Assembly (NCBI GenBank): GCA_965248265.1 | Contig: CBDFJF010000001.1 | Span: 2,464,001-2,528,000 of the forward strand | From: Candidatus Latescibacterota bacterium | GTDB lineage: Bacteria > Latescibacterota > UBA2968 > UBA8231 | Direction: 5' to 3' | Length of the DNA: 64,000 bases | Shown here: one piece after another, positions 4,591-64,000 of the stretch | How the letters are laid out: each line of letters begins with the position of its first letter | Numbering within the stretch: position 1 is the first letter of the stretch | Notes under the pieces: generated by a model | Database searches by the model: none | Told to the model about the DNA's origin: nothing | Seen by the model: only the letters and a program-made list of their open reading frames with translations | Translations under genes and position numbers: made by a program

Positions 4591-5631
4591 ATGACTGCGA
4601 CCGACTTCATAGCTGAACCCATCATCTCTTTACTGATGCCCGTGTACCAGGCTGCCGCTACCCTGCCGGAAACGCTCGAGAGCCTGCGCTCCCAGTCGCT
4701 GGATCGCTTTGAGATCGTCGCCGTTGACGATGGCTCAACGGACGAGAGCCGAGCCATCCTCGAGGCATGGCGACGGACCGATTCCCGTCTGCGCCCGGAG
4801 TTCCAAGATCACGCCGGCCTTACCCATGCCCTTAACCATGGCCTTCGATCGTGTAAGGCACCCTACATCGCCCGCATGGATGCCGACGACTTGGCCGCGC
4901 CCCAACGGCTGGAAAAGCAGCTGCAGTTTATGGAGCACCATCCCCAGGTGAGCGTCCTCGGCACGCAGATAGAGTGTTTTCCGGCGGACCAGGTGGGGGA
5001 GGGATACCGCGTTTACTGCGAGTGGCAGAACGCCTTGATCGAGCACGAGCAGATTGCGCGGGAGATCTTCGTCGAGAGTCCCCTCACCCATCCTTCTGTC
5101 ATGCTTCGGCGCGACGAGCTGCTCGCCCTCGGAGGCTATCACGATTGTGTCTGGGCGGAGGACTACGACTTGTGGCTGCGTTACTTCTCCGCCGGCAAGC
5201 GCTTCGCCAAGTTGCCCGAAGTCCTGCTGTCATGGCGTCAACATCCGGGACGGTTGACGCGCACGGACTCGCGTTATTCGGTCGAGAATTTCCTGCGGGC
5301 GAAAGCCCACTATCTGCTCGCCGGTCCCCTGCAGGGTCGCGATGCCCTGTTCGTCTGGGGCGCCGGCAAGACGGGGCGCCGGATCTCCAAACACCTCATA
5401 CGCGGCGGCTGCACACCCACCGCATTCATCGACATCGATGACAACAAGATCGGAGGAACCTTGCGGCGGGTCCCCGTTATCGGGATGGGCGACCTGTCAA
5501 AACAGTGGTCGCAGTGGCAGCGCCCATTCCTGCTGGCGGCAGTGGCCTCTCGCGGTGCACGGAAGTTGATCCGGGAGGAATTGGAAAAACTGCAGCTGGC
5601 CGAGGGTGAGGACTTTCTGTGTGCCGCGTGA
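4591..5631 (+). CDS. GT2-family glycosyltransferase with C-terminal Rossmann-like domain
   Basis: [39 protein letters not shown]; C-terminal VWGAGKTG. Confidence 0.9.
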
Positions 5632-7666: not shown

Positions 7667-10051
7667 TCACACCAGTTGCGCAAGCTTTGTCTGGATGTCG
7701 ACCAGACGCTTGTAGGTTCCATCTTCACGCTGCATCAATTCTTTGTGTGGTCCCACCTCGACGATGCGACCCTTGTCCATGACGATCAACCGGTCCGCGT
7801 TCTTGAGTGTCGACAGGCGATGCGCGATCGCGATGGTGGTGCGATTGGCGATGAGGCGGCTCAGCGCCTGTTGTATTTCTGATTCTGTCTCCGTGTCGAC
7901 GGAGCTCGTCGCCTCATCCATAATCAAAATTCGCGGATCCCCGATCAGGGCACGCGCGATCGAGATCCGCTGGCGCTCGCCCCCGGACAAGCGACCACCG
8001 CGCTCTCCGACCTGGGTGTCATAGCCGTCCGGAAAATTGATGAACTGGTGGGCATTCGCGGCCCGCGCCGATTCCATGATCTGCATCGGTGTCGCGTCCG
8101 GTTTGCCGTAGGCGATGTTCTCGGCGATCGTGCCCTGGAACAACAGCGGTTCCTGCAGCACGACCCCGATTTGAGCCCGCACTCTTTGTTGCTGCAGGTC
8201 TTTTATGGGATGGTCGTCGATGAGAATCTCGCCGTCGGTGGCATCGTAGAATCTGGACGCCAGGTTGGCCAGTGTCGACTTGCCGGCGCCGCTGTGGCCG
8301 ACGATGCCGATCATCTCACCCGGTTCGACCGTGAAACTGACGCGATCCAGGATGCGAGCCAGGCCATCGTAGGTGAAGCTGACATCGCGAAACTCGATCT
8401 TGCCCTCGATGACGCCGGGATCGATCGCCTTGGGCTGATCCTCGACGTCCAGCTCGGTATCGAGGACTTCGAACACACGCTCGGCCGAGGTTGCCGCCTC
8501 TTCCAAACTCTCCGACAGCATGCACAGATCGCGCACCGGTTGGTGGAACATCGTCATGTAGGCGATGAACTGCTGCAGCTCTCCCAGCGACATCCTGTCT
8601 CCGAGCACCATGCCACCACCGAAATACCACAGAATCACTGACCCTACGCTGGTCGTGAAGGTGATCGCTGGCATGAACGTGGCCTTCATCTTGACCTGGG
8701 CCATCATCGACTGGCGCAGCTGCGTGTTCTTGTTGTCGAAGCGGCGATTCTCGCGATTCTCCTGGGCAAAGGACTTGACCACCTTGACCCCGGGTATGGT
8801 ATCGGCCAGCTGCGAGTTGAGCTCCGAAATCCGGCGCCATATTCGATGAAAAACCCAGTGCACCCGTGCCCGGTAGAGCAAAGTGCCCGCAACCATGAAC
8901 GGCGTCGGGATCAAGGCCAGCAGCGCCAGCCGCCAGTTCAGGTAGAACAGCGCCCCGCCGATGCCGATCAAGGTCAGGATCGAGATGGCCATGTCCTGAA
9001 AGCCGACGGTGATGAAATTGCGCATGCGATCGGTGTCACCCGTGACACGTGTCATGATGCGACCGGTGCTGACGCGGTTGTAATAATTGAGCGACAGCAG
9101 CTGCAAGTGTCCAAAGACGGCGGTCTGCAAGTCGTAGACGACGCGCTGACCGAGCCATCCGAGGGTGTATTGGCGGGCACTGCCCATCAGCGTGCGCACG
9201 ATGAACATGCCGAGAAGGCCGACAACCAACCATCCAAGAGTCGGTCCGGATTCGGCCGCCAGAGCCAGCGCGTAGTCAGCGGTTGCTAGCGCGACTTCCT
9301 GCGCCTGCAGTCGTGCCGATTCAGTGACAGCCTCGGCAACGGACTGCTCTGCCTCACTCGCCTTTAGGTAGGCCGCCGACACCGGAAACAGCACATCATC
9401 GATGAGGATCCTGTTCAACAACGGGGGCACGAGGCTGAACCCCGTGAGGACCAGAGTCAGCACGAAACCGATGGTCGCAATCCCGCGGTACCGCTTTACA
9501 TAGGTGAACAGGCGCGAAAAGGTTTCGGATTTGCGGATGCAGTTGAGGCAAATTGTGGTGTCGGCGCGCAGCGCGCGACCACACGTCTTGCAGTGTTCGA
9601 CCTTCGGAGGCGCCAGGGCAGGCGGATCGATCTCCGCCTCATGCGACAGCGGATCGGCCAGGGCTGCTTCCACTGCCAACGGAATTCCCGAGAACTTGTA
9701 GTACGCTCCCTGGGAGAAGCGGACGATCTCGCGGGTTTCGCCCGGCAGGTCGACGACGAGGGCTCCGTTGCCAACGTAGTTTTTCGTGTGGATCTTCTGG
9801 ATGTCGCGCAGAAGAATGGCTTCGATCTCGGGCTCGGACCCACCGTTGGGATGGAGGATCATGAGCCGCTCGTCCGTGAGAGCGAGCCAGGAATCGGCGA
9901 AGTTACCCTCCCGGTCGAGATCGGCTGACAACAACACCATCACCAATTCGCCCGGTTGCAGCTCGTGGCGCAGATGCTTCTCAAGCTCCTCTGGGATGGG
10001 CTCGACTAGTTCCACTCGAAACTCACTCGCGAGCGCACTCGCGACGAGCAC
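7667..10051 (-). CDS. ABC exporter (permease + ATPase) with N-terminal extension and Cys-rich linker
   Basis: Walker A GHSGAGKST, signature LSGGERQR, Walker B ILIMDEATSS, IAHRLST, TM domain, CKTC...CLNC linker. Start uncertain. Confidence 0.93.
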   Translation of the reverse strand: MLVASALASEFRVELVEPIPEELEKHLRHELQPGELVMVLLSADLDREGNFADSWLALTDERLMILHPNGGSEPEIEAILLRDIQKIHTKNYVGNGALVVDLPGETREIVRFSQGAYYKFSGIPLAVEAALADPLSHEAEIDPPALAPPKVEHCKTCGRALRADTTICLNCIRKSETFSRLFTYVKRYRGIATIGFVLTLVLTGFSLVPPLLNRILIDDVLFPVSAAYLKASEAEQSVAEAVTESARLQAQEVALATADYALALAAESGPTLGWLVVGLLGMFIVRTLMGSARQYTLGWLGQRVVYDLQTAVFGHLQLLSLNYYNRVSTGRIMTRVTGDTDRMRNFITVGFQDMAISILTLIGIGGALFYLNWRLALLALIPTPFMVAGTLLYRARVHWVFHRIWRRISELNSQLADTIPGVKVVKSFAQENRENRRFDNKNTQLRQSMMAQVKMKATFMPAITFTTSVGSVILWYFGGGMVLGDRMSLGELQQFIAYMTMFHQPVRDLCMLSESLEEAATSAERVFEVLDTELDVEDQPKAIDPGVIEGKIEFRDVSFTYDGLARILDRVSFTVEPGEMIGIVGHSGAGKSTLANLASRFYDATDGEILIDDHPIKDLQQQRVRAQIGVVLQEPLLFQGTIAENIAYGKPDATPMQIMESARAANAHQFINFPDGYDTQVGERGGRLSGGERQRISIARALIGDPRILIMDEATSSVDTETESEIQQALSRLIANRTTIAIAHRLSTLKNADRLIVMDKGRIVEVGPHKELMQREDGTYKRLVDIQTKLAQLV

Positions 10052-10369
10052 CGGTTGTGCTGCCCGTGCTTCGAAGGCCGGAATTTTCGGTATAAGATAT
10101 TGTTTTTTATTATTTTAGAGATTGGATAGCAAGTTGCGCCGGTGACCGCAACTCGATCTGGTAAGTTAGGCAGAGCCGCGCATGCTTGCAACACAACCGC
10201 TTGAAGGGAAGTAGGTTACGACAGAACCCGCTGGGCGGCGAGGTGCGCGAGGTCACGGTTGTTTGACAACCGTCATCGACAGTCGTTGTGCGTGACATTG
10301 TTGCTGTATTATCGTGATATTATTGCTGTATTATATTGTTTTTATTGACTTTTTTCAGGGAGTTCCCGT

Positions 10370-11860
10370 TTGGATTTACCACAACCGAATCCGCAGAAAC
10401 TGCAGCTCCGGGATGAGGTCATCCTACAGCTGTCCCGGGCGTTGCTACCTGACCAGGTCATTCACAGGGCTGAGGACCTCATCGTCTATGAGTGCGACGC
10501 CCTTTCAGCTTACCGACAGCTGCCAATGGCTGTCGTCCTGCCATCGTCGACGGACGAGGTCGCCGCCGCCATACGCGTCTGCGCCGGCCTGGAGATTCCG
10601 ATCATTCCGTGGGGAGCCGGCACCGGCCTCTCAGGGGGAGCACTGCCGCGTCAGGACGGGGTCGTCATCAGCCTCGCCCGCATGAACCGGATCCTCGATA
10701 TCGATCTCGACAATGGAACGGCCACGGTGGAGCCTGGCGTCACCAACCTCGCCGTGTCGAACGCCGTTGCGGCGGCTGGTTTTTACTACGCTCCGGACCC
10801 TTCGAGCCAACTCGCCTGCACCATCGGCGGCAATATCGCCGAAAACTCTGGTGGGGTGCATTGTCTCAAGTACGGCACCACGACCAACAATGTCCTGGGA
10901 TTGGAGATCGTGCTCGCCGACGGTACGATCGTCGACGTCGGCGGCAAAGCCATGGAACGCGCCGGTTATGATTTGCTGGCATTGATGACGGGTTCGGAGG
11001 GACTGCTCGGCATCATTACCAAGGCCACACTGCGGTTGCTGCGACGGCCCGAGCTTGCCCGGACGATGATGGCGGTCTACGACAGCGTCGAGACTGCCGC
11101 TCAGGCGGTCGCCGACATCATCGCCGCCGGCATGGTTCCGGCAGGCATGGAAATCATGGACCGTTTGGCGATCGAGGCGGTTGAGGACTTTTTGAGTTGC
11201 GGCTACCCGCGTGGGGTTGAGTCATTGCTGTTGGTCGAGCTTGATGGCTCAACCGCTGAAGTAGAGGCTCACGCAGGACACCTCGAACAGCTGTTGGAGC
11301 AGTCGGGCGCCACCGAGATCCGCCGGGCAAACTCGGAAGAAGAGCGGCAGAACTTTTGGGCCGGACGCAAAGCCGCGTTCCCGGCGATGGGACGGATTAC
11401 ACCCGACTATTACTGCATGGATGGTACCATCCCGCGTGGCCGCCTGGCCGAAGTATTGCGGCAGATCCAGGAGTTGTCTGCGAAGTACAACCTGGCCGTG
11501 GCCAACGTCTTTCACGCCGGTGACGGCAACCTGCATCCGCTGATACTGTACGATGGCAACCAACCCGAACAGTTAGAGAAAGCCGAACGTTTCGGAGCCG
11601 AGATACTGCAGCTGTGCGTCAAGGTCGGAGGCGTCCTCAGCGGCGAACACGGAATCGGCATCGAGAAACGCGATCTGATGCCGTGCATGTTCGGGGACGC
11701 CGATCTCGACTCGCAGGAACGCATAAAATCCGGTTTCGATCCGGCCAACATCCTCAATCCCGGCAAGGTATATCCTATTCTGAGGCGGGGGTGCATCGAG
11801 GGCGGGAAAATGCACGTCCACGGAGGTGACCTGCCATTCCCTGAGTTGGAGCGATTCTGA
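10370..11860 (+). CDS. glcD: Glycolate oxidase FAD-linked subunit GlcD
   Basis: GAGTGLSGG, YAPDPSSQLACTIGGNIAENSGGVHCLKYG, FHAGDGNLHP, GEHGIG, C-terminal PFPELERF. Confidence 0.9.
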   Translation: MDLPQPNPQKLQLRDEVILQLSRALLPDQVIHRAEDLIVYECDALSAYRQLPMAVVLPSSTDEVAAAIRVCAGLEIPIIPWGAGTGLSGGALPRQDGVVISLARMNRILDIDLDNGTATVEPGVTNLAVSNAVAAAGFYYAPDPSSQLACTIGGNIAENSGGVHCLKYGTTTNNVLGLEIVLADGTIVDVGGKAMERAGYDLLALMTGSEGLLGIITKATLRLLRRPELARTMMAVYDSVETAAQAVADIIAAGMVPAGMEIMDRLAIEAVEDFLSCGYPRGVESLLLVELDGSTAEVEAHAGHLEQLLEQSGATEIRRANSEEERQNFWAGRKAAFPAMGRITPDYYCMDGTIPRGRLAEVLRQIQELSAKYNLAVANVFHAGDGNLHPLILYDGNQPEQLEKAERFGAEILQLCVKVGGVLSGEHGIGIEKRDLMPCMFGDADLDSQERIKSGFDPANILNPGKVYPILRRGCIEGGKMHVHGGDLPFPELERF

Positions 11861-11945
11861 GAATGGCGAAACCTTGCAGACTGGAGCGGATCTCCGGCAA
11901 CCGTCTGCCTGGGATCCAGCCTGCCCTGGTCACCGAGGTTCCTCG

Positions 11946-13112
11946 ATGACGGAGCTCGTGCACCGGCCCACGGATGTCGACGCCCTTCAAGACGCCGTGC
12001 GCACGGCTACTGGCGGCCTGCGGATCGCCGGTGCAGGCACCAAGAGTTCGCTCGGTCGCTCCGTGAACGCCAGTGCCACCATTGATGCCACCGGATTGCG
12101 CGGCATCGTCACCTACGAACCCGCCGAACTCATTCTGGTAGCGCGACCGGGAACTCCGTTGACTGAGGTGGAGGAGTTGTTGGCCGCCGAAGGACAGCAC
12201 CTTGCATTCGAGCCACCGCACTGGGGAGATACGGCAACCCTGGGAGGCACCGTCGCCTGCGGTCTGTCCGGTCCACGCCGCTTCAAAGCCGGTGCACTGC
12301 GAGATTTCATGCTGGGGGCGCAGATCGTCGATGGCGACGGCGAGTGCACACGCTCAGGGGGCCGCGTAGTCAAGAACGTCACCGGTTACGATATACCCCG
12401 CCTCTTGTGCGGGTCATTCGGTACGTTGGGTATCCTCACGGAGGTGTGCCTGAAACTGTGGCCCCGTCCGGAACTTGCGCAGACCCTCATCCTGCATGGG
12501 CAATCGCCGCAGTCGGCGTTGTCCGCTTTGCTGCAGTGGGCCCGATCCCCGTATGAGATAACCGGCCTGGCGTATCAACCCGGCGACGCACATCGTCGAG
12601 CACGCACCCTGTTGCGTCTCGAGGGTGCCGAAGGTGCCGTGGTGCGACAGGCCGCATCCCTCAAAGATGCGATCGCGGCCGACAACGGCGGCAGTGCCGA
12701 ACTAGAAATCGTCGACGCCGACAACTCCGCGGCAATCTGGGCGGAGGTGAAGGAACGACCCGTGCCTGTCGATGGAGATTCACAGCGTTGGCGCTTCGCG
12801 CTACCCCCGGCAAGCGCCAACGAGTTAATCGAAGGGTTGGGAGAGTTGGGGCTGGAGCGCTACCTCGTAGACTGGGCCGGCGGACTGGTGTGGGCTGTCC
12901 TGCCGGCCGCCTCCGACCCCGTGCGCCTGCATTCGCTGGCAACGGACGGCGCCGGAACAGCCTGGCGTTTCGCGGACGGACCCGGGGATGCCAACCAGAA
13001 TGCGTTCTCTCCGTTGGAACCCACCCTGGAGCGCCTCAACCGCACCCTCAAGACCTCCATGGATCCGAGAGGGGTGCTCAATCCCGGGCTCATGCTGCCT
13101 GTGGACGAATGA
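11946..13112 (+). CDS. glcE: Glycolate oxidase FAD-binding subunit GlcE
   Basis: GIVTYEPAEL, LAFEPP, ATLGGTVACGLSGPRR, GGRVVKNVTGYD, DPRGVLNPG; follows glcD. Confidence 0.88.
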   Translation: MTELVHRPTDVDALQDAVRTATGGLRIAGAGTKSSLGRSVNASATIDATGLRGIVTYEPAELILVARPGTPLTEVEELLAAEGQHLAFEPPHWGDTATLGGTVACGLSGPRRFKAGALRDFMLGAQIVDGDGECTRSGGRVVKNVTGYDIPRLLCGSFGTLGILTEVCLKLWPRPELAQTLILHGQSPQSALSALLQWARSPYEITGLAYQPGDAHRRARTLLRLEGAEGAVVRQAASLKDAIAADNGGSAELEIVDADNSAAIWAEVKERPVPVDGDSQRWRFALPPASANELIEGLGELGLERYLVDWAGGLVWAVLPAASDPVRLHSLATDGAGTAWRFADGPGDANQNAFSPLEPTLERLNRTLKTSMDPRGVLNPGLMLPVDE

Positions 13113-13160
13113 GTCGATCCAATTGATTTGGCCGATTGAATCTGGCTGGGTGGGTTTGAC

Positions 13161-14345
13161 TCAGTATATCTGGCCAGAGCGATACCCCGGCGGTTTAGTG
13201 GCGTTGCCGCTCAACCACTCCGCCCGCCGGTCTCGGGCGTACACGTACTGGTAGTCGTAAGCGTCATCTGGGGGTGCGATGTTGCCGGTCGACGGGTACT
13301 TGGCGATCGCCTGTTCCACTAGATCAACACCTAGACCGGGCGCCGCGGGTACCGCGATGTGGCTGTCCTCGACCTGCGGCTGGCCGCTCATGACCTCATA
13401 ACGCTGCGGAACATCGTCTTCGAGATGTTCCAGGATGAGGAAGTTGGGCAGGGTCGCCATCAAGTGGACGGCCGCCATCTCCGCAACCGGTCCCAGCGAG
13501 CCATCGTGCGGTGCCACCGTGATGTGATGCGCCTCCGCCATGGCGGCGATCTTCTTCATCTGCATCAGGCCGCCGGCACGACCGGTGTCGGGCTGAACGA
13601 CATCGATGATCTCGCTCTCGATCAGCTCCTGCACTCCCCATATCATCGCGTGACGTTCGCCGGCGCCTATGGGAATGTCGACAGCCTCGGCGACCCTTCG
13701 CAGCGCCTCCACGTGCTCCGGAGCCACCGGATCTTCGTAGAACAGGAGGTTGAACGGCTCCAGCTTCTTGCCCATGGAAATGGCATCGGACGTCGTCATC
13801 CATGGCGGGCCGTGCACGTCCACCATCAGATCGACTTCATCTCCAACAGCGGTGCGAATGGCCTCGAGGTTGGCGAGTAAATTCGGTACACCGCCTGTCT
13901 TCACCGCAGTGTACCCGGCGTCGATTCGCTTCTTAGCCTGATCGGGCGAGTGGGCATGAGCATACACCCGAACCCGGTCACGCATCTTGCCACCGAGCAG
14001 TTCATATACCGGTACATCGAGGGCCTTGCCCTTGATATCCCACAACGCCATCTCGATGCCGGTCATGGCGCCGCTGCCAACGATTCCGGTCATGCCGTGC
14101 CCCATTATCCCACACAACATCTTGTGCCAGATGCGCTCGATGGCGAAAGGTTCTTCCCCGATCACGATGGGGGCCAGATCCTGGATAGCCGTCTCTACGA
14201 CCCTAGGCCAACCACTGGCCTCTCCCACTCCGTAGATGCCACTGTCCGTATGCACCCGGACGAAGAGCCAGTTCCTGGCGTTCCAACCCCCGACCTCAGC
14301 CGGCGCCGCGTGCATCAAGAAGGTCTCTATCTCGGTTATCTTCAT
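13161..14345 (-). CDS. Mandelate racemase/muconate lactonizing enzyme family protein (galactonate dehydratase-like)
   Basis: RNWLFVRVHTDSGIYGVGE, EMALWDIKGK, metal ligands D/EDP/GE, QPD; GGAGAG RBS before ATG 14345. Confidence 0.88.
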   Translation of the reverse strand: MKITEIETFLMHAAPAEVGGWNARNWLFVRVHTDSGIYGVGEASGWPRVVETAIQDLAPIVIGEEPFAIERIWHKMLCGIMGHGMTGIVGSGAMTGIEMALWDIKGKALDVPVYELLGGKMRDRVRVYAHAHSPDQAKKRIDAGYTAVKTGGVPNLLANLEAIRTAVGDEVDLMVDVHGPPWMTTSDAISMGKKLEPFNLLFYEDPVAPEHVEALRRVAEAVDIPIGAGERHAMIWGVQELIESEIIDVVQPDTGRAGGLMQMKKIAAMAEAHHITVAPHDGSLGPVAEMAAVHLMATLPNFLILEHLEDDVPQRYEVMSGQPQVEDSHIAVPAAPGLGVDLVEQAIAKYPSTGNIAPPDDAYDYQYVYARDRRAEWLSGNATKPPGYRSGQIY

Positions 14346-58711: not shown

Positions 58712-59755
58712 ATGACGCCGTCTTCGCCAGCTCCCAGCAGTCCCCATGAGCACAGGGAAGTTATCGGTGTTCTGTTGGCACAACTAGGAACCCCGGCGGC
58801 ACCTACAGCTTCTGCATTGCGACCCTATCTGCGGCAGTTCTTGTCCGACCCGCGGGTCGTCGATCTGCATCCATTGAGGTGGTGGCCGATTCTATATGGC
58901 ATCGTCCTGACCTTGCGCCCCGCTCGCTCGGCTCGTCGGTACCGCAACATCTGGCAGAAGGATGGGTCGCCGTTGATGATCTACTCACAGCAACAGACGG
59001 CCCTCTTGCAGCAGCAATTGGGCGATTCCTTCAGAGTCGTCCTCGGCATGCGCTATGGCCAACCCAGCATCGACGTGGCCGTTCGTGAGCTGCTGTCGCA
59101 GGGCATCGATCGCATCCTCCTGTTCCCGATGTTCCCCCAGTTCTCATGTGCGACCACCGGGTCGGTCTACGACGCCGTCTACGACGCCCTTCAGGGACGC
59201 AACGGGCCCTGGAGTTTCGAACGCCGCCGGTCGATGCCGGCTCTTCGTATCGTTCCGCCCTACTACGACCACCCCGCCTACATCGACAGTCTCAAGGGTA
59301 CGATAGAGGAGACGGTGACGTCCGCGATGCACCCGCCCGAGCGCTATCTGTTCACCTTCCATGGGATTCCGCGTCGGTATGTCGAAGAAGGCGATCCCTA
59401 CCGCTGGCAGTGCGAAGAGACGGCCCGCCTACTGGCGGCGAGTCTTGAGTTGGACTCAGATAGTTGGCTGGTGGGTTTTCAATCCCGCTTCGGCAAGGAG
59501 CCGTGGCTGGAGCCCTACACCGAGGAGGAGCTGGTTCGTCTAGGACGCGACGGTGTGCGCCGCCTGATCGCCGCCTGTCCGGGGTTCACGGCGGACTGTC
59601 TCGAAACTTTGGACGAAATCGGCAGGGAGGGGGCCGAGCAGTTCGCCGAGGGTGGTGGACGGGAACTCACCCTGGTGCCATGCCTCAACACCCATCCGAC
59701 TTGGATCGAGGCGATGGCGCAGATCACCCGCGAGAACAGCAACGGTTGGGCCTGA
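58712..59755 (+). CDS. hemH: Ferrochelatase
   Basis: LGTP, YLRQFLSDPRV, GSPL, MRYGQP, FHGIP, GDPY, FQSRFG..PWLEP, FTADCLETLDEI. Confidence 0.96.
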   Translation: MTPSSPAPSSPHEHREVIGVLLAQLGTPAAPTASALRPYLRQFLSDPRVVDLHPLRWWPILYGIVLTLRPARSARRYRNIWQKDGSPLMIYSQQQTALLQQQLGDSFRVVLGMRYGQPSIDVAVRELLSQGIDRILLFPMFPQFSCATTGSVYDAVYDALQGRNGPWSFERRRSMPALRIVPPYYDHPAYIDSLKGTIEETVTSAMHPPERYLFTFHGIPRRYVEEGDPYRWQCEETARLLAASLELDSDSWLVGFQSRFGKEPWLEPYTEEELVRLGRDGVRRLIAACPGFTADCLETLDEIGREGAEQFAEGGGRELTLVPCLNTHPTWIEAMAQITRENSNGWA

Positions 59756-59788: not shown

Positions 59789-61198
59789 TCACGTCTGTGC
59801 GGCGGCGGCCTGTTCCTTTTCTGAGAATACCCGCCCTGCGTAGCGGGCAGCCACTATCCACACCAGCAGAATCGCAACGGTCGCCAACGACAGCCAGCGC
59901 ACATTCTCGAAGCCGGCGAACCATGTAGCGATCACCAGATTGATGCCCACGGCCACAGCCTTGGCAAAGCGCTGGATGAACATGTCGATGAAGGCCTTAG
60001 CCTTGTATTTCTCATCCCGTGTCGTAGGCACGTACAACACTTCCTTGGCCGACTGGTTGATCGAATAGCTGAAACCGTTGTCGGTCGTGTTCAGAAAGCT
60101 GCCCAGCAGTAGGCCGGGAACGATCAGAAAACCGGCCGAGCCCAGACAGGCGGCGACCGGCAGGAAGAGCAGCGCCACGCCCACACCAAATCGAACCATC
60201 ACGAAGCTGGTCAAGAAAAGCTGCACGACTAGAGCGACTCCGTTGGTGAAGGAGTACACCCTTGGCCAGTGCGTGTAGTGATCATCTCCCAGATAATGGA
60301 ACACCGTGTCCGTGAACTGAAAATCCATGATGGTCGAAACCATTTCGTACAACCCGACGATGGCCATGATCGACAGCAAATAGGGCGATCGGAAAACCAG
60401 CCGCGCCCCCTCCAATGCCGAACTGCCCTCCGGCTTTGCCTCTTCCTGATTGGTCGGCGCTGCTTCGGGAGGTGGATTGCGTTGCACCAACCGGCCAGCC
60501 ACCATGGCAATGAGGGCAATCAGCACCGCGATTCCCAGACAGATCCAGAGCCAAACCGAAGGACTCATCGACGATTTAACGTTGACGGCAACCACTGAGC
60601 TGCCGAAAAATCCTCCTACGACACCGCCCAACCCGATCAGTCCATACAGCCGCTTGGCGACGTCAGGTGTCACGCTGTCGTTCAGAAAAGCGAAGAACGT
60701 CACCACCATCAAGGTGCTGAAGAGGTCACCAAAGAGATAGAACGACCATGCCGTCCCGCCTCCGGGACTGTCCAGGACGAAACCGTAGAGTACGTAGGCG
60801 ACAATGAAGAACCCACAGAAGATATAGGTGAGTTGTTGGCGCCGGAGAGACCGGGCCAGAAAGGCAAAGGCCGCTGCTGCCGCGAAAGCCACGACCATGT
60901 TCATGACCTTCGCGACCTGCTCAGCCCCTGACGGCTGCAGTTGCCAACCCCACCAGTCGAAACCGGACTCGGCGATATAGCCGATGAAGACTCCCTTCTT
61001 GATCGGCTTCAGGATCCAGAAGCTGGTGATGACCAGGAAGAAATAGAGGAACATCAGCAGGGCCATCAGTCTCTCTTCGGGACGGAAGCCTGTGATCTGC
61101 TTTACGATAAAGGCGATAAAGATGGCGCCCAGGAGCCACCACCAATTCGCGAGAATGTCTGCGAATGCCTGGAAGAAAGTGAATCCGAATGATTCCAT
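59789..61198 (-). CDS. NTT/TLC-family nucleotide (ATP/ADP-type) translocase, MFS fold
   Basis: FFLVITSFWILKPIK, FFAFLND..T...AKRLYGLIGLGG, YSINQSAKEVLYVP...EKYKAKAFID; about 12 TM helices, no HEAT or cNMP fusion. Confidence 0.83.
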   Translation of the reverse strand: MESFGFTFFQAFADILANWWWLLGAIFIAFIVKQITGFRPEERLMALLMFLYFFLVITSFWILKPIKKGVFIGYIAESGFDWWGWQLQPSGAEQVAKVMNMVVAFAAAAAFAFLARSLRRQQLTYIFCGFFIVAYVLYGFVLDSPGGGTAWSFYLFGDLFSTLMVVTFFAFLNDSVTPDVAKRLYGLIGLGGVVGGFFGSSVVAVNVKSSMSPSVWLWICLGIAVLIALIAMVAGRLVQRNPPPEAAPTNQEEAKPEGSSALEGARLVFRSPYLLSIMAIVGLYEMVSTIMDFQFTDTVFHYLGDDHYTHWPRVYSFTNGVALVVQLFLTSFVMVRFGVGVALLFLPVAACLGSAGFLIVPGLLLGSFLNTTDNGFSYSINQSAKEVLYVPTTRDEKYKAKAFIDMFIQRFAKAVAVGINLVIATWFAGFENVRWLSLATVAILLVWIVAARYAGRVFSEKEQAAAAQT

Positions 61199-61273
61199 TT
61201 GCGCTCCAGTCTGTAGCGCTTCAGTTAGTAATTTTGACGACTATGCTACTGGACGTAGCCAGCAGCCACGCAC

Positions 61274-62959
61274 TCAGCTGTCGCGCTCGATTCGCACTAT
61301 GCGACTGCGCCCGTCGTCCCAGTTGTGGAAGTAGACTCGAATGGCCTTGCCCCAGTCGTCATCTCCACGACGGGTGCGGATTTCGTAGCCGTGAAAACCC
61401 GTGCGTAACCCTGGAGCTATGATGATGGCCGTCGGGATCACCGACCCCTGGCGCTCACCTGCCTCGCTTACCGCTTTTCCGGTGTCGTCGAGGAGGCGGT
61501 ACTGGTAACGCGTCTGATCCGCCGACTCCAGCCCGCCGCTGACGGCCAGATCCTCAAAGCGCAACTCGCCGTCAATCAGCTCGAAGTGATCCAGGGGATT
61601 GACCCTGGCATACCAGAAGCGACCGATCATGTCCCGCCTTTCGATGATGAGTCGGGCCAGTTCTTCGGCGGCGTCCGGGTTGGATAACAACCCTGTGCCG
61701 ACGATAGCGCGAATCTCCTCATCGGTGAAGGCCATGACGATTTTGGCACCCCAATATGCGTCACGGTTGGTGCAACGCTCGAAGGCCGGATTCGGATAGG
61801 TCGGCACCCAGCGCGCGGGTCGGAAGGTCGCATTCTCGAAATAACCGATCGAGGGGTACTGGATTGGCTGGGGTTCCTCCCAGCCTTTGCGGTAGAATCC
61901 AAGGGACACGATAGAAAGACCGATGGTGCGCGGGTCCCACACGTACTCGTTGCCGTACTTGGGCGGATGCGGCATCAGGTTGTTGCTACCGAAAGCCGAG
62001 CCCATGTCGATGAGGTAGTGGCGCACGTAGCGACGTGCGCCGTCCTCTTCGCTCACGTACATGTCAAGGGTGTTGGCGGCACGCCGATCGGCGTCGTTCA
62101 TCCACGAGCCGATCACCCTCAGACCCCGCAGCTCACGCCGGTGCTCGTGGTCGACCCGATCGTTGGAATCATCCTTACGGCGGCCGTGGTAGTCGAAAAT
62201 ACCAACAGGTTTGCCGGACAAAAACTTGCTTGCCACGCAACGCAGGCGACCATCCGCCTGGGGGATGATGTTGTCGAGGATCGCCTGCATGTCGCGCTCT
62301 TCCATCTTGCGCTTGCCGCCGCCTCGTTTTGGCACCTTGGCTTTGGGGCCGATCACGAGCCGCGATGGATCGAAGTAGACGACCGAATTTCGCGGTACGT
62401 TGTAGCCGGCCGCGTGCAGGAACTTGGTGGCGATTATCTCCGCCGAAGATCCCATCTCGTTGTTGCCTTCGGAATCGAATTTCAGCAGGTAGTACTGGCC
62501 AGACGCGTCCTTGATCGTGAAGCCGGCGGTGCCACCCTCGAACTTGCCCGCGACGATCTCCAACGGTCCAGAGTCATCCGGATGTGCCCATCCAGGTCCC
62601 ACCTCCAGCTCTTCGATCGACATCGGTTTCAGAAAATGGCGGTTCGTGTACCACGAAGAGCCGGGCACCTCGTCCAGAACATTGACGTTGTCCGCTTCAC
62701 GGGGCGGTGCAACCCGCAGGATGTTGCCGATGCGCCTGGTCGTCCACCCCAGGTCCAGCAATTTTCCCACCTGGAAAAAGAGGGTGTGATCGGCAATATC
62801 CCAGACCTGATTTTCCCTGATTTCAAGTGGCTCTGGCATGCTCTTGTTATCCGCGTCGAACCATTTGACTGGAGCGGTGGACAGATCCGGTTCTGCGCTT
62901 GCGGACCCCGCGAACGCCAGCGTACTCACCACAAGAGTTGTGGACCGCAGAACCCTCAA
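61274..62959 (-). CDS. Exported hypothetical protein with atypical kinase-fold motifs
   Basis: Signal peptide ending ASA; GKFEGGTAGF, LLKFD, SAEIIA, NDADRRAAN, YLIDMGSAFG; TTGA overlap with the upstream gene. Confidence 0.8.
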   Translation of the reverse strand: MRVLRSTTLVVSTLAFAGSASAEPDLSTAPVKWFDADNKSMPEPLEIRENQVWDIADHTLFFQVGKLLDLGWTTRRIGNILRVAPPREADNVNVLDEVPGSSWYTNRHFLKPMSIEELEVGPGWAHPDDSGPLEIVAGKFEGGTAGFTIKDASGQYYLLKFDSEGNNEMGSSAEIIATKFLHAAGYNVPRNSVVYFDPSRLVIGPKAKVPKRGGGKRKMEERDMQAILDNIIPQADGRLRCVASKFLSGKPVGIFDYHGRRKDDSNDRVDHEHRRELRGLRVIGSWMNDADRRAANTLDMYVSEEDGARRYVRHYLIDMGSAFGSNNLMPHPPKYGNEYVWDPRTIGLSIVSLGFYRKGWEEPQPIQYPSIGYFENATFRPARWVPTYPNPAFERCTNRDAYWGAKIVMAFTDEEIRAIVGTGLLSNPDAAEELARLIIERRDMIGRFWYARVNPLDHFELIDGELRFEDLAVSGGLESADQTRYQYRLLDDTGKAVSEAGERQGSVIPTAIIIAPGLRTGFHGYEIRTRRGDDDWGKAIRVYFHNWDDGRSRIVRIERDS

Positions 62960-63999
62960 AACTCCTGCTCCAATGAAAATCCCGTGAGCAGGCTCTCTTC
63001 CGCGCTGTGGGCGAGGCGCAATCCGAGAAGCAATCCGGTCTGCGAGCGCAGACTCATCCCGCCTCCGGTCGACGACACGAAGTTGCCGGTTTCGATATCG
63101 CCGTATTCATCGAACACCTGGCCCTCTTCGTGGAAGAGGAACGCGTTCCACGTATCCCAGACCGGCCATCGGTACTCAACCGCCAGCAGCAGCGAGCCCT
63201 GGCCACGCAGAGCACCACGCTCATACCCGCGCAGGCGCTGGCTGCCGCCCAGATGGGGCAGATCGGGGAATGGCACGAGGCCATCGTCGATGTCATGGAC
63301 TCTGTCCAGGCGCACTCGTCCGGCCAGGATGCGGTTGCGCCAGAACAGGGTTTGAAAACGCTGGGCCTCGGCGGCGAGGCGGACGAAGCGCGCCTCATCC
63401 GACCCGGTGACGTAATCGACCCCGGCCATCAACAGGTTGCCGCTTTCGGGGTAGAAGGTATCGCGAAATGAATGGTAGACGTCCTGGTGGTGGATCAACA
63501 TGCGCCCGGGGAAGTGGTAGTTTAACGGGTGCGACAGCGATCGCACCGGCTCCTCGAAGTCGCGGTCGTCGTATTCGATGGTGGCGCCCACCGTGAGAAG
63601 GGAGATCGACTTGCCCAATCCACCAAGCTGGCTCGCGGCGGGGGTGAGGCCGAAGGTACCGACTACAGGTGGTGTCGTCGGCACCTGTGTCGAGAAGTCC
63701 CTACGACCCCAGCCGAGGCGGCCCTCCACTGAAAAACCCTTGCTATACAGATGCAGGGGGCCGTCGTTCGAACGCCATCCCACCGTGGCCAGGATATCGG
63801 CACGCTCCACGGCGAACAGGGCTCCCAATCGGTCCTCGACGCTGCCGTTGGCAGTGGAGCCCTCGTCGTTCGTCTTGAGGTAATCAACTTCGACGTCCCA
63901 GTAGGTAGTTGCCCCTGCGAAGTCAGTGTATTGCAGCCACCCGCTGTGACGGTCGGCATCCCTGACCGTGTAGGCCGCGTTCAGTACGTGACTGCGACC
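62956..63999 (-). CDS. Omp85 (BamA/TamA)-family beta-barrel, 5' end lies outside the window
   Basis: Frame is open to the window edge; LGGSQRLRGY, AVEYRWP, amphipathic strands, terminal Phe (FSLEQEF). Confidence 0.82.
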   Translation of the reverse strand, partial: GRSHVLNAAYTVRDADRHSGWLQYTDFAGATTYWDVEVDYLKTNDEGSTANGSVEDRLGALFAVERADILATVGWRSNDGPLHLYSKGFSVEGRLGWGRRDFSTQVPTTPPVVGTFGLTPAASQLGGLGKSISLLTVGATIEYDDRDFEEPVRSLSHPLNYHFPGRMLIHHQDVYHSFRDTFYPESGNLLMAGVDYVTGSDEARFVRLAAEAQRFQTLFWRNRILAGRVRLDRVHDIDDGLVPFPDLPHLGGSQRLRGYERGALRGQGSLLLAVEYRWPVWDTWNAFLFHEEGQVFDEYGDIETGNFVSSTGGGMSLRSQTGLLLGLRLAHSAEESLLTGFSLEQEF

Positions 64000-64000
64000 G

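Follow-up and report, generated by a model that had tools for sequence, protein, structure and literature searches.

Can a free-living bacterium run a kinase outside its cytoplasm, and where would such an enzyme obtain its nucleotide? The periplasm is generally held to contain no ATP, a view that shapes thinking on how the machines of the cell envelope are powered. The question is raised by three co-oriented genes at the end of a 64,000-nucleotide stretch of DNA from a Candidatus Latescibacterota bacterium (GenBank assembly GCA_965248265.1, contig CBDFJF010000001.1). We refer to this whole stretch as the window; it corresponds to G000:C1:2464001-2528000, G000 being the 7.3-Mb source genome. 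The three genes encode an Omp85-superfamily barrel (O-B), a predicted exported protein of 561 amino acids with kinase-type motifs (X-B), and a carrier of the TLC or nucleotide translocase (NTT) family (T1). A preliminary description, made from the letters alone, had proposed that the carrier may export ATP and take back ADP to fuel a periplasmic or surface kinase, a proposal that is partly supported by our analysis. We found that O and X form the core of a widespread module in which T1 is a dedicated but dispensable third member. The reading that we favour, tentatively, is that exported X is fuelled by nucleotide supplied through T1, with O as its partner in the envelope.

All three genes lie on the minus strand. 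O-B occupies positions 62956-64000 and leaves the window, continuing to the equivalent of position 64104; the part of its open reading frame (ORF) inside the window, 62956-63999, encodes the C-terminal 347 amino acids of an Omp85-domain protein. Its stop codon overlaps the TTG start codon of X-B (61274-62959) in the four letters TTGA at 62959-62956. X-B is followed by a spacer of exactly 75 nucleotides (61199-61273), with GGAG 9 nucleotides before the ATG of T1 (59789-61198). T1 is a predicted inner-membrane carrier of 469 amino acids and the last gene of the operon. The overlap and a gap of about this length had both been noted in the preliminary description. The 75-nucleotide spacer contains no promoter-like or terminator-like site, the promoter and terminator scan giving results at chance level, and no Rfam family match or regulatory RNA was found in the nine loci scanned. 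Beyond the window, we fetched 17 kb around its end (L002, in which position p equals window position p+58999), where the preliminary description had expected the rest of the operon. A second pair of genes is present there on the same strand as the trio: O-A, an Omp85-domain protein of 436 amino acids (L002 6447-7757), and X-A, of 449 amino acids (L002 5087-6436). The gene order is O-A, X-A, O-B, X-B, T1, the trio being the distal part of a tandem pair of pairs. X-A is 42% identical to X-B over 408 residues, and O-A is 32% identical to O-B across the last 150 residues.

X-B comprises a signal peptide, a conserved N-terminal region, a kinase-like core at about residues 125-345 and a C-terminal region at about residues 450-560. 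The cleavable signal peptide reported for it earlier held up: the leader is hydrophobic and ends SASA/EP at about residue 22, and its orthologues have the same leader type or a lipobox. Among the 244 family members with a complete N-terminus, 239 possess a hydrophobic leader and 116 a lipobox-like cysteine. X-B and its close relatives carry the Ala-x-Ala type of leader, and X-A and most of the distant members a lipobox. X is very probably exported and would thus be extracytoplasmic. Its family is large, with 2832 clusters at 50% identity in an exhaustive search; a word-indexed search gave 1633 hits, all of them called 'hypothetical' where they are named at all. Identity across phyla ranges from 38 to 91%, with one or two copies per genome. 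X-B has no Pfam or NCBIfam match and no sequence match in the PDB, two family profiles found no match among solved structures, and a search for shorter relatives returned fragments alone, none with a Pfam domain.

The kinase assignment comes from profile comparison. When 45 diverse X members were scanned against Pfam at E ≤ 10, sub-threshold matches were obtained to HipA_C in 7 and to HipA_2 in 6, with a best E of 0.0021, and every other family was matched once at most. We aligned the X core (residues 125-345, 259 sequences) by hhalign with a HipA profile made from E. coli HipA and 26 HipA_C proteins of the phylum, which yielded an E of 1e-4 and a score of 39.4 over 185 columns. The controls scored 12.7 for the reversed alignment, at most 18.8 for 20 column shuffles and 13.5 for an Omp85 profile. 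The alignment places the characteristic elements in register: the Gly-rich stretch of X falls on the HipA P-loop and Lys160 on HipA Lys181; the helix AE..A....AAGYNVP falls on NE.....LA...G..VP; and Asp291..Asn296 and Asp318 fall on HipA Asp309..Asn314 and Asp332, respectively. We checked the positions of these HipA residues, which we take to be the ATP-binding Lys, the catalytic Asp, the Asn and the Mg-binding Asp. The kinase motifs in the right order, as read in the preliminary description, are supported by this in-register profile-profile alignment. Conservation within the family follows the same positions, with K160 kept in 249, D291 in 249, N296 in 251 and D318 in 253 of the 259 members. 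A second motif, D267, H271, R275 and R278, is invariant (259/259).

Other comparisons gave less. Three restricted to the C-lobe found nothing, and a 45-member X profile had no match to the single E. coli HipA sequence and reached a probability of at most 3.6% against three small HipA alignments. No curated HipA model scored above its cut-off for X-B, the models for Fam20C (PF06702) and CotH (PF08757) had no match at E ≤ 10 in the 23 and 45 X members scanned, and a search of 61 genomes of the phylum turned up no HipA_2 (PF20613). A confident model of an X homologue (pTM 0.86) is available in the ESM Atlas. With two stored X homologues as queries, the nearest named clusters were Fam20C, HipA_2, CotH, PI3/PI4-kinase and LepB_N, all of them atypical kinases, at 0.78-0.82. 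Shuffled proteins often score in this range, so these matches are leads only; the Atlas structure search of an X homologue returned the family's own unnamed clusters alone. Taken together, these results indicate that X is very probably an enzyme that is exported and whose core is HipA/PI3-4-kinase-like, and we infer that it is an active phosphotransferase dependent on nucleoside triphosphate.

Three unusual relatives of X were seen along the way. In P0259 (782 amino acids), an X domain is joined on its C-terminal side by a PAP2 phosphatase. P0273 (955 amino acids) joins a GT4 glycosyltransferase to a kinase-like domain without the 80 residues with which the family begins, and may be a gene-calling fusion or a cytoplasmic form. 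The third is a kinase-like gene 56% identical to X-B on a 2039-nucleotide contig (L041, JACZSS010000710.1) binned as Candidatus Heimdallarchaeota. Because its X pairs with a KSB1 sequence inside an otherwise bacterial clade, mostly of Calditrichota and Bacteroidota, this contig is most likely a binning contaminant.

The NTT-family identity of the 469-amino-acid gene was confirmed. T1 matches Pfam TLC (PF03219) with 80.9 bits against a cut-off of 21 (E 1.1e-22), compared with 35.8 bits for MFS_1, and phmmer aligned its residues 149-460 with the solved plastid ATP/ADP carrier 9j3j (E 3.2e-16) and with 9j3n, ADP,ATP carrier protein 1 (E 1.9e-12). The stretches AK(R/K)xY..G.G and KE..Y.P...K.K.KA.ID, which rank among the most conserved of these carriers, are kept, and 12-13 hydrophobic segments are present, in line with the roughly 12 that mark its likeness to NTT/TLC carriers (TC 2.A.12). 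T1 differs from these carriers in falling far below the NCBI cut-off, in belonging to a free-living bacterium with a 7.3-Mb genome, and in being tied to an exported kinase-like protein. Judged by these matches, it is a true homologue of the solved plastid and chlamydial ATP/ADP carriers but a distant NTT relative, a member of the TLC superfamily that stands outside the curated NTT equivalog. G000 contains three TLC genes in total, namely T1, a gene of 414 amino acids and a TLC-HEAT fusion of 914 amino acids. The 414-amino-acid gene (L120 5168-6412, G000:C1 ~105167-106411; Pfam TLC 45.5 bits) lies away from both clusters in which the other two reside.

How tightly are these genes bound to one another? 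We collected 79 loci with X relatives, one genome per species, which together with L002 make 80 loci, and clustered all their ORFs. The counts below come from metagenome-assembled genomes with crude ORF calling, and they describe a pattern and not a probability, as related genomes are not independent. The 80 loci contain 83 X genes of at least 400 amino acids, 68 of which have at least 1.3 kb of upstream flank; O lies directly upstream in 58 of these 68 (same strand, ends within 500 nucleotides). Of the ten misses, two have O and X separated by a Metallophos gene and one comes from an error of ORF calling. Downstream, an ORF of the TLC cluster starts within 600 nucleotides of X in 26 of the 71 loci with at least 1.5 kb of flank, and a TLC-class ORF is present on the same strand within 6 kb in 28 of the 50 loci with at least 6 kb. 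The TLC-linked X genes are spread over the two deep clades of the X tree and carry at least eight different phylum-level labels.

The linkage also holds when read from the carrier. Among 151 genomes of the phylum, 19 besides G000 have a T1 orthologue (54-71% identical), and X lies directly before it in 16 of the 19. In two (G007 and G028) the gene directly before is of the O type and X is elsewhere in the genome; in the remaining one neither X nor O is found within 1.5 kb. X is present in 36 of the 151 genomes, and the 22 genomes with a T1-like match (E ≤ 1e-30) are all among these 36, with none among the 115 X-negative genomes. The 22 comprise 20 with an orthologue and two (G063 and G102) with a weaker TLC-HEAT paralogue alone. 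Since G000 has only three TLC genes in 7.3 Mb, chance adjacency of T1 and X is remote. Absence of co-occurrence elsewhere, which the preliminary description had named as fatal to its idea, is thus refuted, the genes co-occurring widely in both directions. The O-X pair is the core, and T1 is its dedicated but dispensable third member. By its predicted parts, the module is a conserved cell-envelope unit, mainly of the FCB group and neighbouring phyla; it was found in Latescibacterota, Calditrichota, Rhodothermota/Bacteroidota, KSB1, Ignavibacteriota, Poribacteria and others.

Variants of this arrangement are seen within Latescibacterota. In G007 (L135) and G028 (L137), which belong to one genus, the barrel lies directly before T1, and X is 2.7 Mb off in G007 and 10 kb off in G028. 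In one subclade (L028, L029, L050, L051 and L076, ~8600-13700), the O-X pair is followed by no TLC gene. A patatin-Omp85 gene (PlpD-like, 743 amino acids) and an Omp85-like gene of 903 amino acids come after X instead, and three Omp85-family genes stand consecutively.

The barrel called in the preliminary description is indeed an Omp85-domain protein, scoring 37.9-38.2 bits (O-B) and 32.3 bits (O-A) against a Pfam Omp85 (PF01103) cut-off of 24. It was described from a gene that the window cuts, and in this genome O-B proves to be N-terminally truncated and to have no signal peptide. O proteins are generally 380-480 amino acids long with a family-specific N-terminal segment of about 100. No POTRA-family match was found in O-A, O-B or their orthologues, and just about 100 residues precede the barrel. 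An LRG(Y/F) loop motif and an F.(D/E).G motif are kept, both of which we take to be significant for the superfamily. The full O-B ORF, read from the genome sequence, has 382 amino acids and lacks the signal peptide and the first 65-100 residues that ten of ten aligned orthologues and the paralogue O-A possess. X-A is also incomplete: it ends about 120 residues earlier than other family members, and its final 21 codons no longer follow the reading frame of the family. Read in the frame of O-B, homology to the N-terminal segment of the barrel starts immediately past the end of the X-A homology, which puts the junction at L002 ~5105-5170 (G000:C1 ~2528104-2528169, window-equivalent 64104-64169).

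We considered an assembly artefact and rejected it, for contigs of two runs from one sample, probably the source, cross the junction unchanged (run X1, L002 2932-7800; run X3, L002 4320-7800; 0 differences). In runs X5 and X6, from another study and holding a relative, all four long contigs stop matching at L002 5152, with 487-980 further letters off the stretch. The simplest reading is a real, strain-specific deletion of about 0.6 kb or more that cost X-A its C-terminal domain and O-B its leader. The set that remains intact in this genome would then probably be O-A, X-B and T1.

Two kinds of phosphatase accompany the module. A Metallophos phosphoesterase of 340-440 amino acids, in most cases with a lipobox-like N-terminus, adjoins X in 11 of the 80 loci; it weakly resembles purple acid phosphatase (E 6e-5) and class III cyclic-nucleotide phosphodiesterases. 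A PAP2 phosphatase gene is nearby in six of the 80, and the active site of PAP2 enzymes is on the periplasmic side. Behind T1, many loci carry genes for a TLC-HEAT fusion, a cyclic-nucleotide (cNMP)-binding protein, response regulators and PAS histidine kinases, and the gene directly upstream of O encodes an AcrB-type pump in three loci. G000 has its version of this block in a second envelope cluster on the minus strand (L119 1033-15746, L119 being G000:C1:630000-646000), in the order OEP (TolC-like), HlyD-type adaptor (MFP), AcrB, the 914-amino-acid TLC-HEAT fusion, a cNMP-binding protein, two response regulators and a PAS histidine kinase. This block is 1.9 Mb from O-X-T1, so the two are separable. 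In L016, L003 and L005, AcrB stands directly before O-X-T1 and the TLC-HEAT block directly after it, the two clusters being one.

We can now set out how the module might work. X would phosphorylate its substrate either in the periplasm or on the inner side of the outer membrane, and O would anchor, present, hold or translocate X. T1 would exchange cytoplasmic ATP outward for ADP, with phosphate, inward, and in this way would supply X with a donor in a compartment that lacks its own source of ATP. Phosphatases encoded nearby would undo the phosphate mark that X sets. The substrate could be an envelope lipid or glycolipid, or an envelope protein; the PAP2 link and the fold kinship with lipid kinases make a lipid a candidate. 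The proposed direction of transport takes account of the physiology of the cell: G000 encodes ATP synthase and PurH and has no need of imported ATP, and in a cell that makes its own ATP, an ATP/ADP(+phosphate) exchanger would run outward for ATP. NTT counter-substrates are ADP and phosphate, and these are what a kinase-phosphatase pair releases. On the same grounds of ATP synthase and PurH, energy parasitism was rejected. Both ATP export and kinase activity are steps that we infer. The more complete scheme, a multi-phylum, ATP-fuelled cycle of extracytoplasmic phosphorylation in which an NTT exports ATP, a HipA-like lipoprotein kinase is docked to a dedicated, POTRA-less Omp85 barrel and phosphatases erase its work, is doubtful; equally doubtful are its particulars, namely that T1 takes back ADP and phosphate, that the mark sits on an outer-membrane lipid or protein, and that PAP2 and Metallophos enzymes erase it.

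Several observations weigh against fuelling of X through T1. For the kinase, the hhalign probability of the X core against HipA is only 57.7%, and the clear match was one in ten X/HipA comparisons and needed a deepened alignment limited to the core; its E corrected for ten comparisons is about 1e-3. In the final round, one of six comparisons was clearly positive, the second giving an E of 0.017 in the same register. The GT4 partner of X in P0273 is normally cytoplasmic. For the carrier, T1 scores 76 bits against the NCBIfam model of the NTP/NDP exchanger (TIGR00769), whose cut-off is 387.2, and according to PMC5381601 every characterised NTT imports for its owner. As for linkage, 22 of the 50 loci with 6 kb of flank have no downstream TLC gene, and 14 of the 36 X-bearing genomes have no T1-like match at E ≤ 1e-30, with two more having TLC-HEAT only; some of the X genes in T1-less genomes are fragments. 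The kinship of the genomes also means that our counts overstate the number of independent events, and the signalling genes downstream of T1 in relatives would also fit a signalling role. Finally, O-B has no signal peptide in this strain and is therefore probably not exported, and so probably defective.

Some of these points invite a looser view of the module, in which O and X form an outer-membrane complex, X is structural, a pseudoenzyme or a user of a donor other than ATP, and T1 moves an unrelated solute and is merely co-regulated. T1 is after all a distant NTT relative, almost half of the loci have no nearby TLC gene, and X lacks a sequence-level match to any solved kinase. This view, which we consider unlikely, has difficulty with the nesting of T1 matches in X-bearing genomes (22/22, against 0/115 of the others), with the 16 of 19 T1 orthologues immediately beside X, and with the strong conservation of the catalytic-type residues of X. 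Those residues also count against nutrient scavenging, in which X would bind or process external nucleotides or organophosphates at the outer membrane or within the periplasm, Metallophos and PAP2 enzymes would trim them and T1 would import them, for a binding protein needs no conserved Lys/Asp/Asn/Asp set. Scavenging agrees with the import direction of the characterised NTTs covered by PMC5381601 and with the weak likeness of the Metallophos neighbours to cyclic-nucleotide phosphodiesterases and purple acid phosphatase; in addition, runs that contain small parts of the stretch bear the label of marine or seawater metagenomes, which is a lead only. Yet the genome makes its own purines and ATP, the phosphatases would destroy the very nucleotides that NTTs carry, and Omp85 barrels are not known as nutrient channels. 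We consider scavenging quite improbable.

The genes that follow T1 suggest a different role, with T1, TLC-HEAT, the cNMP-binding protein, response regulators and PAS kinase forming a nucleotide-sensing or signal-transport pathway, a proposal that we rate low. Its companion proposal, rated just as low, is that O and X would be the envelope-side sensor or output. The order O-X-(Metallophos)-T1-TLC_HEAT-cNMP_binding-response regulator-PAS kinase recurs, for example in L009, L010, L014, L016, L017, L063 and L081, G000 itself keeps a TLC_HEAT-cNBD-RR-RR-PAS_HK block (cNBD, cyclic-nucleotide-binding domain; RR, response regulator; HK, histidine kinase) beside an RND pump elsewhere, and the pairing of NTT-HEAT with cNBD genes is already known, as PMC5381601 describes. 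Against signalling, the two G000 blocks are 1.9 Mb apart and O-X-T1 can stand alone, O-X also occurs without any TLC gene, and the catalytic site retained by X would go unexplained; the recurrent order is in any case compatible with nucleotide supply to X. Export of X through O as a HipA-like kinase toxin against other cells, in the style of two-partner secretion, we regard as very improbable indeed. HipA is a toxin kinase and the barrel-then-cargo order recalls tpsB-tpsA, but O has no Pfam POTRA match, and X has no Pfam match at all, TPS-domain families included; no small immunity-like gene is conserved beside X, X is 38-91% identical across phyla in one or two copies per genome, unlike polymorphic toxins, and about half of its members are lipoproteins. 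Two-partner secretion as such was rejected for want of POTRA and TPS domains. A HipBA toxin-antitoxin pair was rejected as well, X being exported and accompanied by no HipB and no conserved small DNA-binding gene. The reading that we continue to favour, tentatively, is thus the supply of nucleotide to exported X through T1, with O as envelope partner.

Comparison with characterised systems helps to place the module. X shares with HipA and HipA_2 kinases the Gly-rich stretch, the Lys, the Asp-x4-Asn loop and the Mg-binding Asp in register. It differs from them in its signal peptide or lipobox, a conserved N-terminal region of 100 amino acids and a C-terminal extension of 200; moreover, its neighbours are an Omp85 barrel and a carrier in place of a HipB-like partner. 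X is not a HipA toxin. Fam20C, Four-jointed and CotH are kinase-fold enzymes that work outside the cytosol and need ATP to be delivered to their compartment. X would resemble them in working mode and not in family membership, there being no sequence-model match to Fam20C or CotH. The nearest functional analogy is offered by the kinases of the eukaryotic secretory pathway, where ATP is imported into the lumen. O matches the Omp85 model over its C-terminal 150-200 residues and the BamA barrel region, and differs from BamA, TamA, TpsB and PlpD in having no POTRA match and in being paired with X, not with TamB, a TpsA cargo or a patatin domain. The closest published gene arrangement is that of the NTT-HEAT and cNBD operons of free-living bacteria in PMC5381601 (Major, Embley and Williams 2017): the same gene pair follows T1 in many of our loci and lies elsewhere in G000. 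The words kinase and Omp85 are absent from the accessible part of that paper, and neither O-X-T1 nor its link to the NTT-HEAT block is described there.

The module as a whole corresponds to no known type of bacterial system. The preliminary description knew of no account of such a module, and the literature that we searched, with most subscription journals outside its coverage, contains no description of the X family, the O-X pair or an NTT-fed periplasmic kinase. PMC5381601 presents NTTs as widely distributed in free-living bacteria with an open role, and the NTT-HEAT and cyclic-nucleotide-binding gene pair as one of unknown function in such bacteria. Two-way linkage and phyletic nesting tie one NTT subfamily to an exported protein with an apparently intact kinase-type active site and to extracytoplasmic phosphatases, which opens both the periplasmic ATP question and that of the NTT role to direct tests with three or four cloned genes. 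If the ATP-fuelled cycle is true, the module would be the first dedicated ATP supply line to a bacterial periplasm and would provide a function for the NTTs of free-living bacteria. Even if ATP export should be wrong, there would remain a large family of HipA-like exported proteins, so far without a name, and the Omp85 partner dedicated to it, and the O-X pair alone would represent new outer-membrane biology in poorly studied phyla.

The surroundings of the module in G000 complete the picture. On the same strand, upstream of O-A (L002 7685-16853), lie genes for an Abhydrolase_2 esterase, whose stop codon lies within a few bases of the probable O-A start, a protein of 761 amino acids with merely a weak rhamnosidase C-domain match, an HtrA/DegP-type protease with two PDZ domains, a ClpB-like double AAA+ ATPase, and DUF5610 and DUF5723 proteins; no ORF among these belongs to the ORF clusters that recur across related loci. 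On the other side, beyond the end of T1, a ferrochelatase gene runs convergently on the plus strand (58712-59755).

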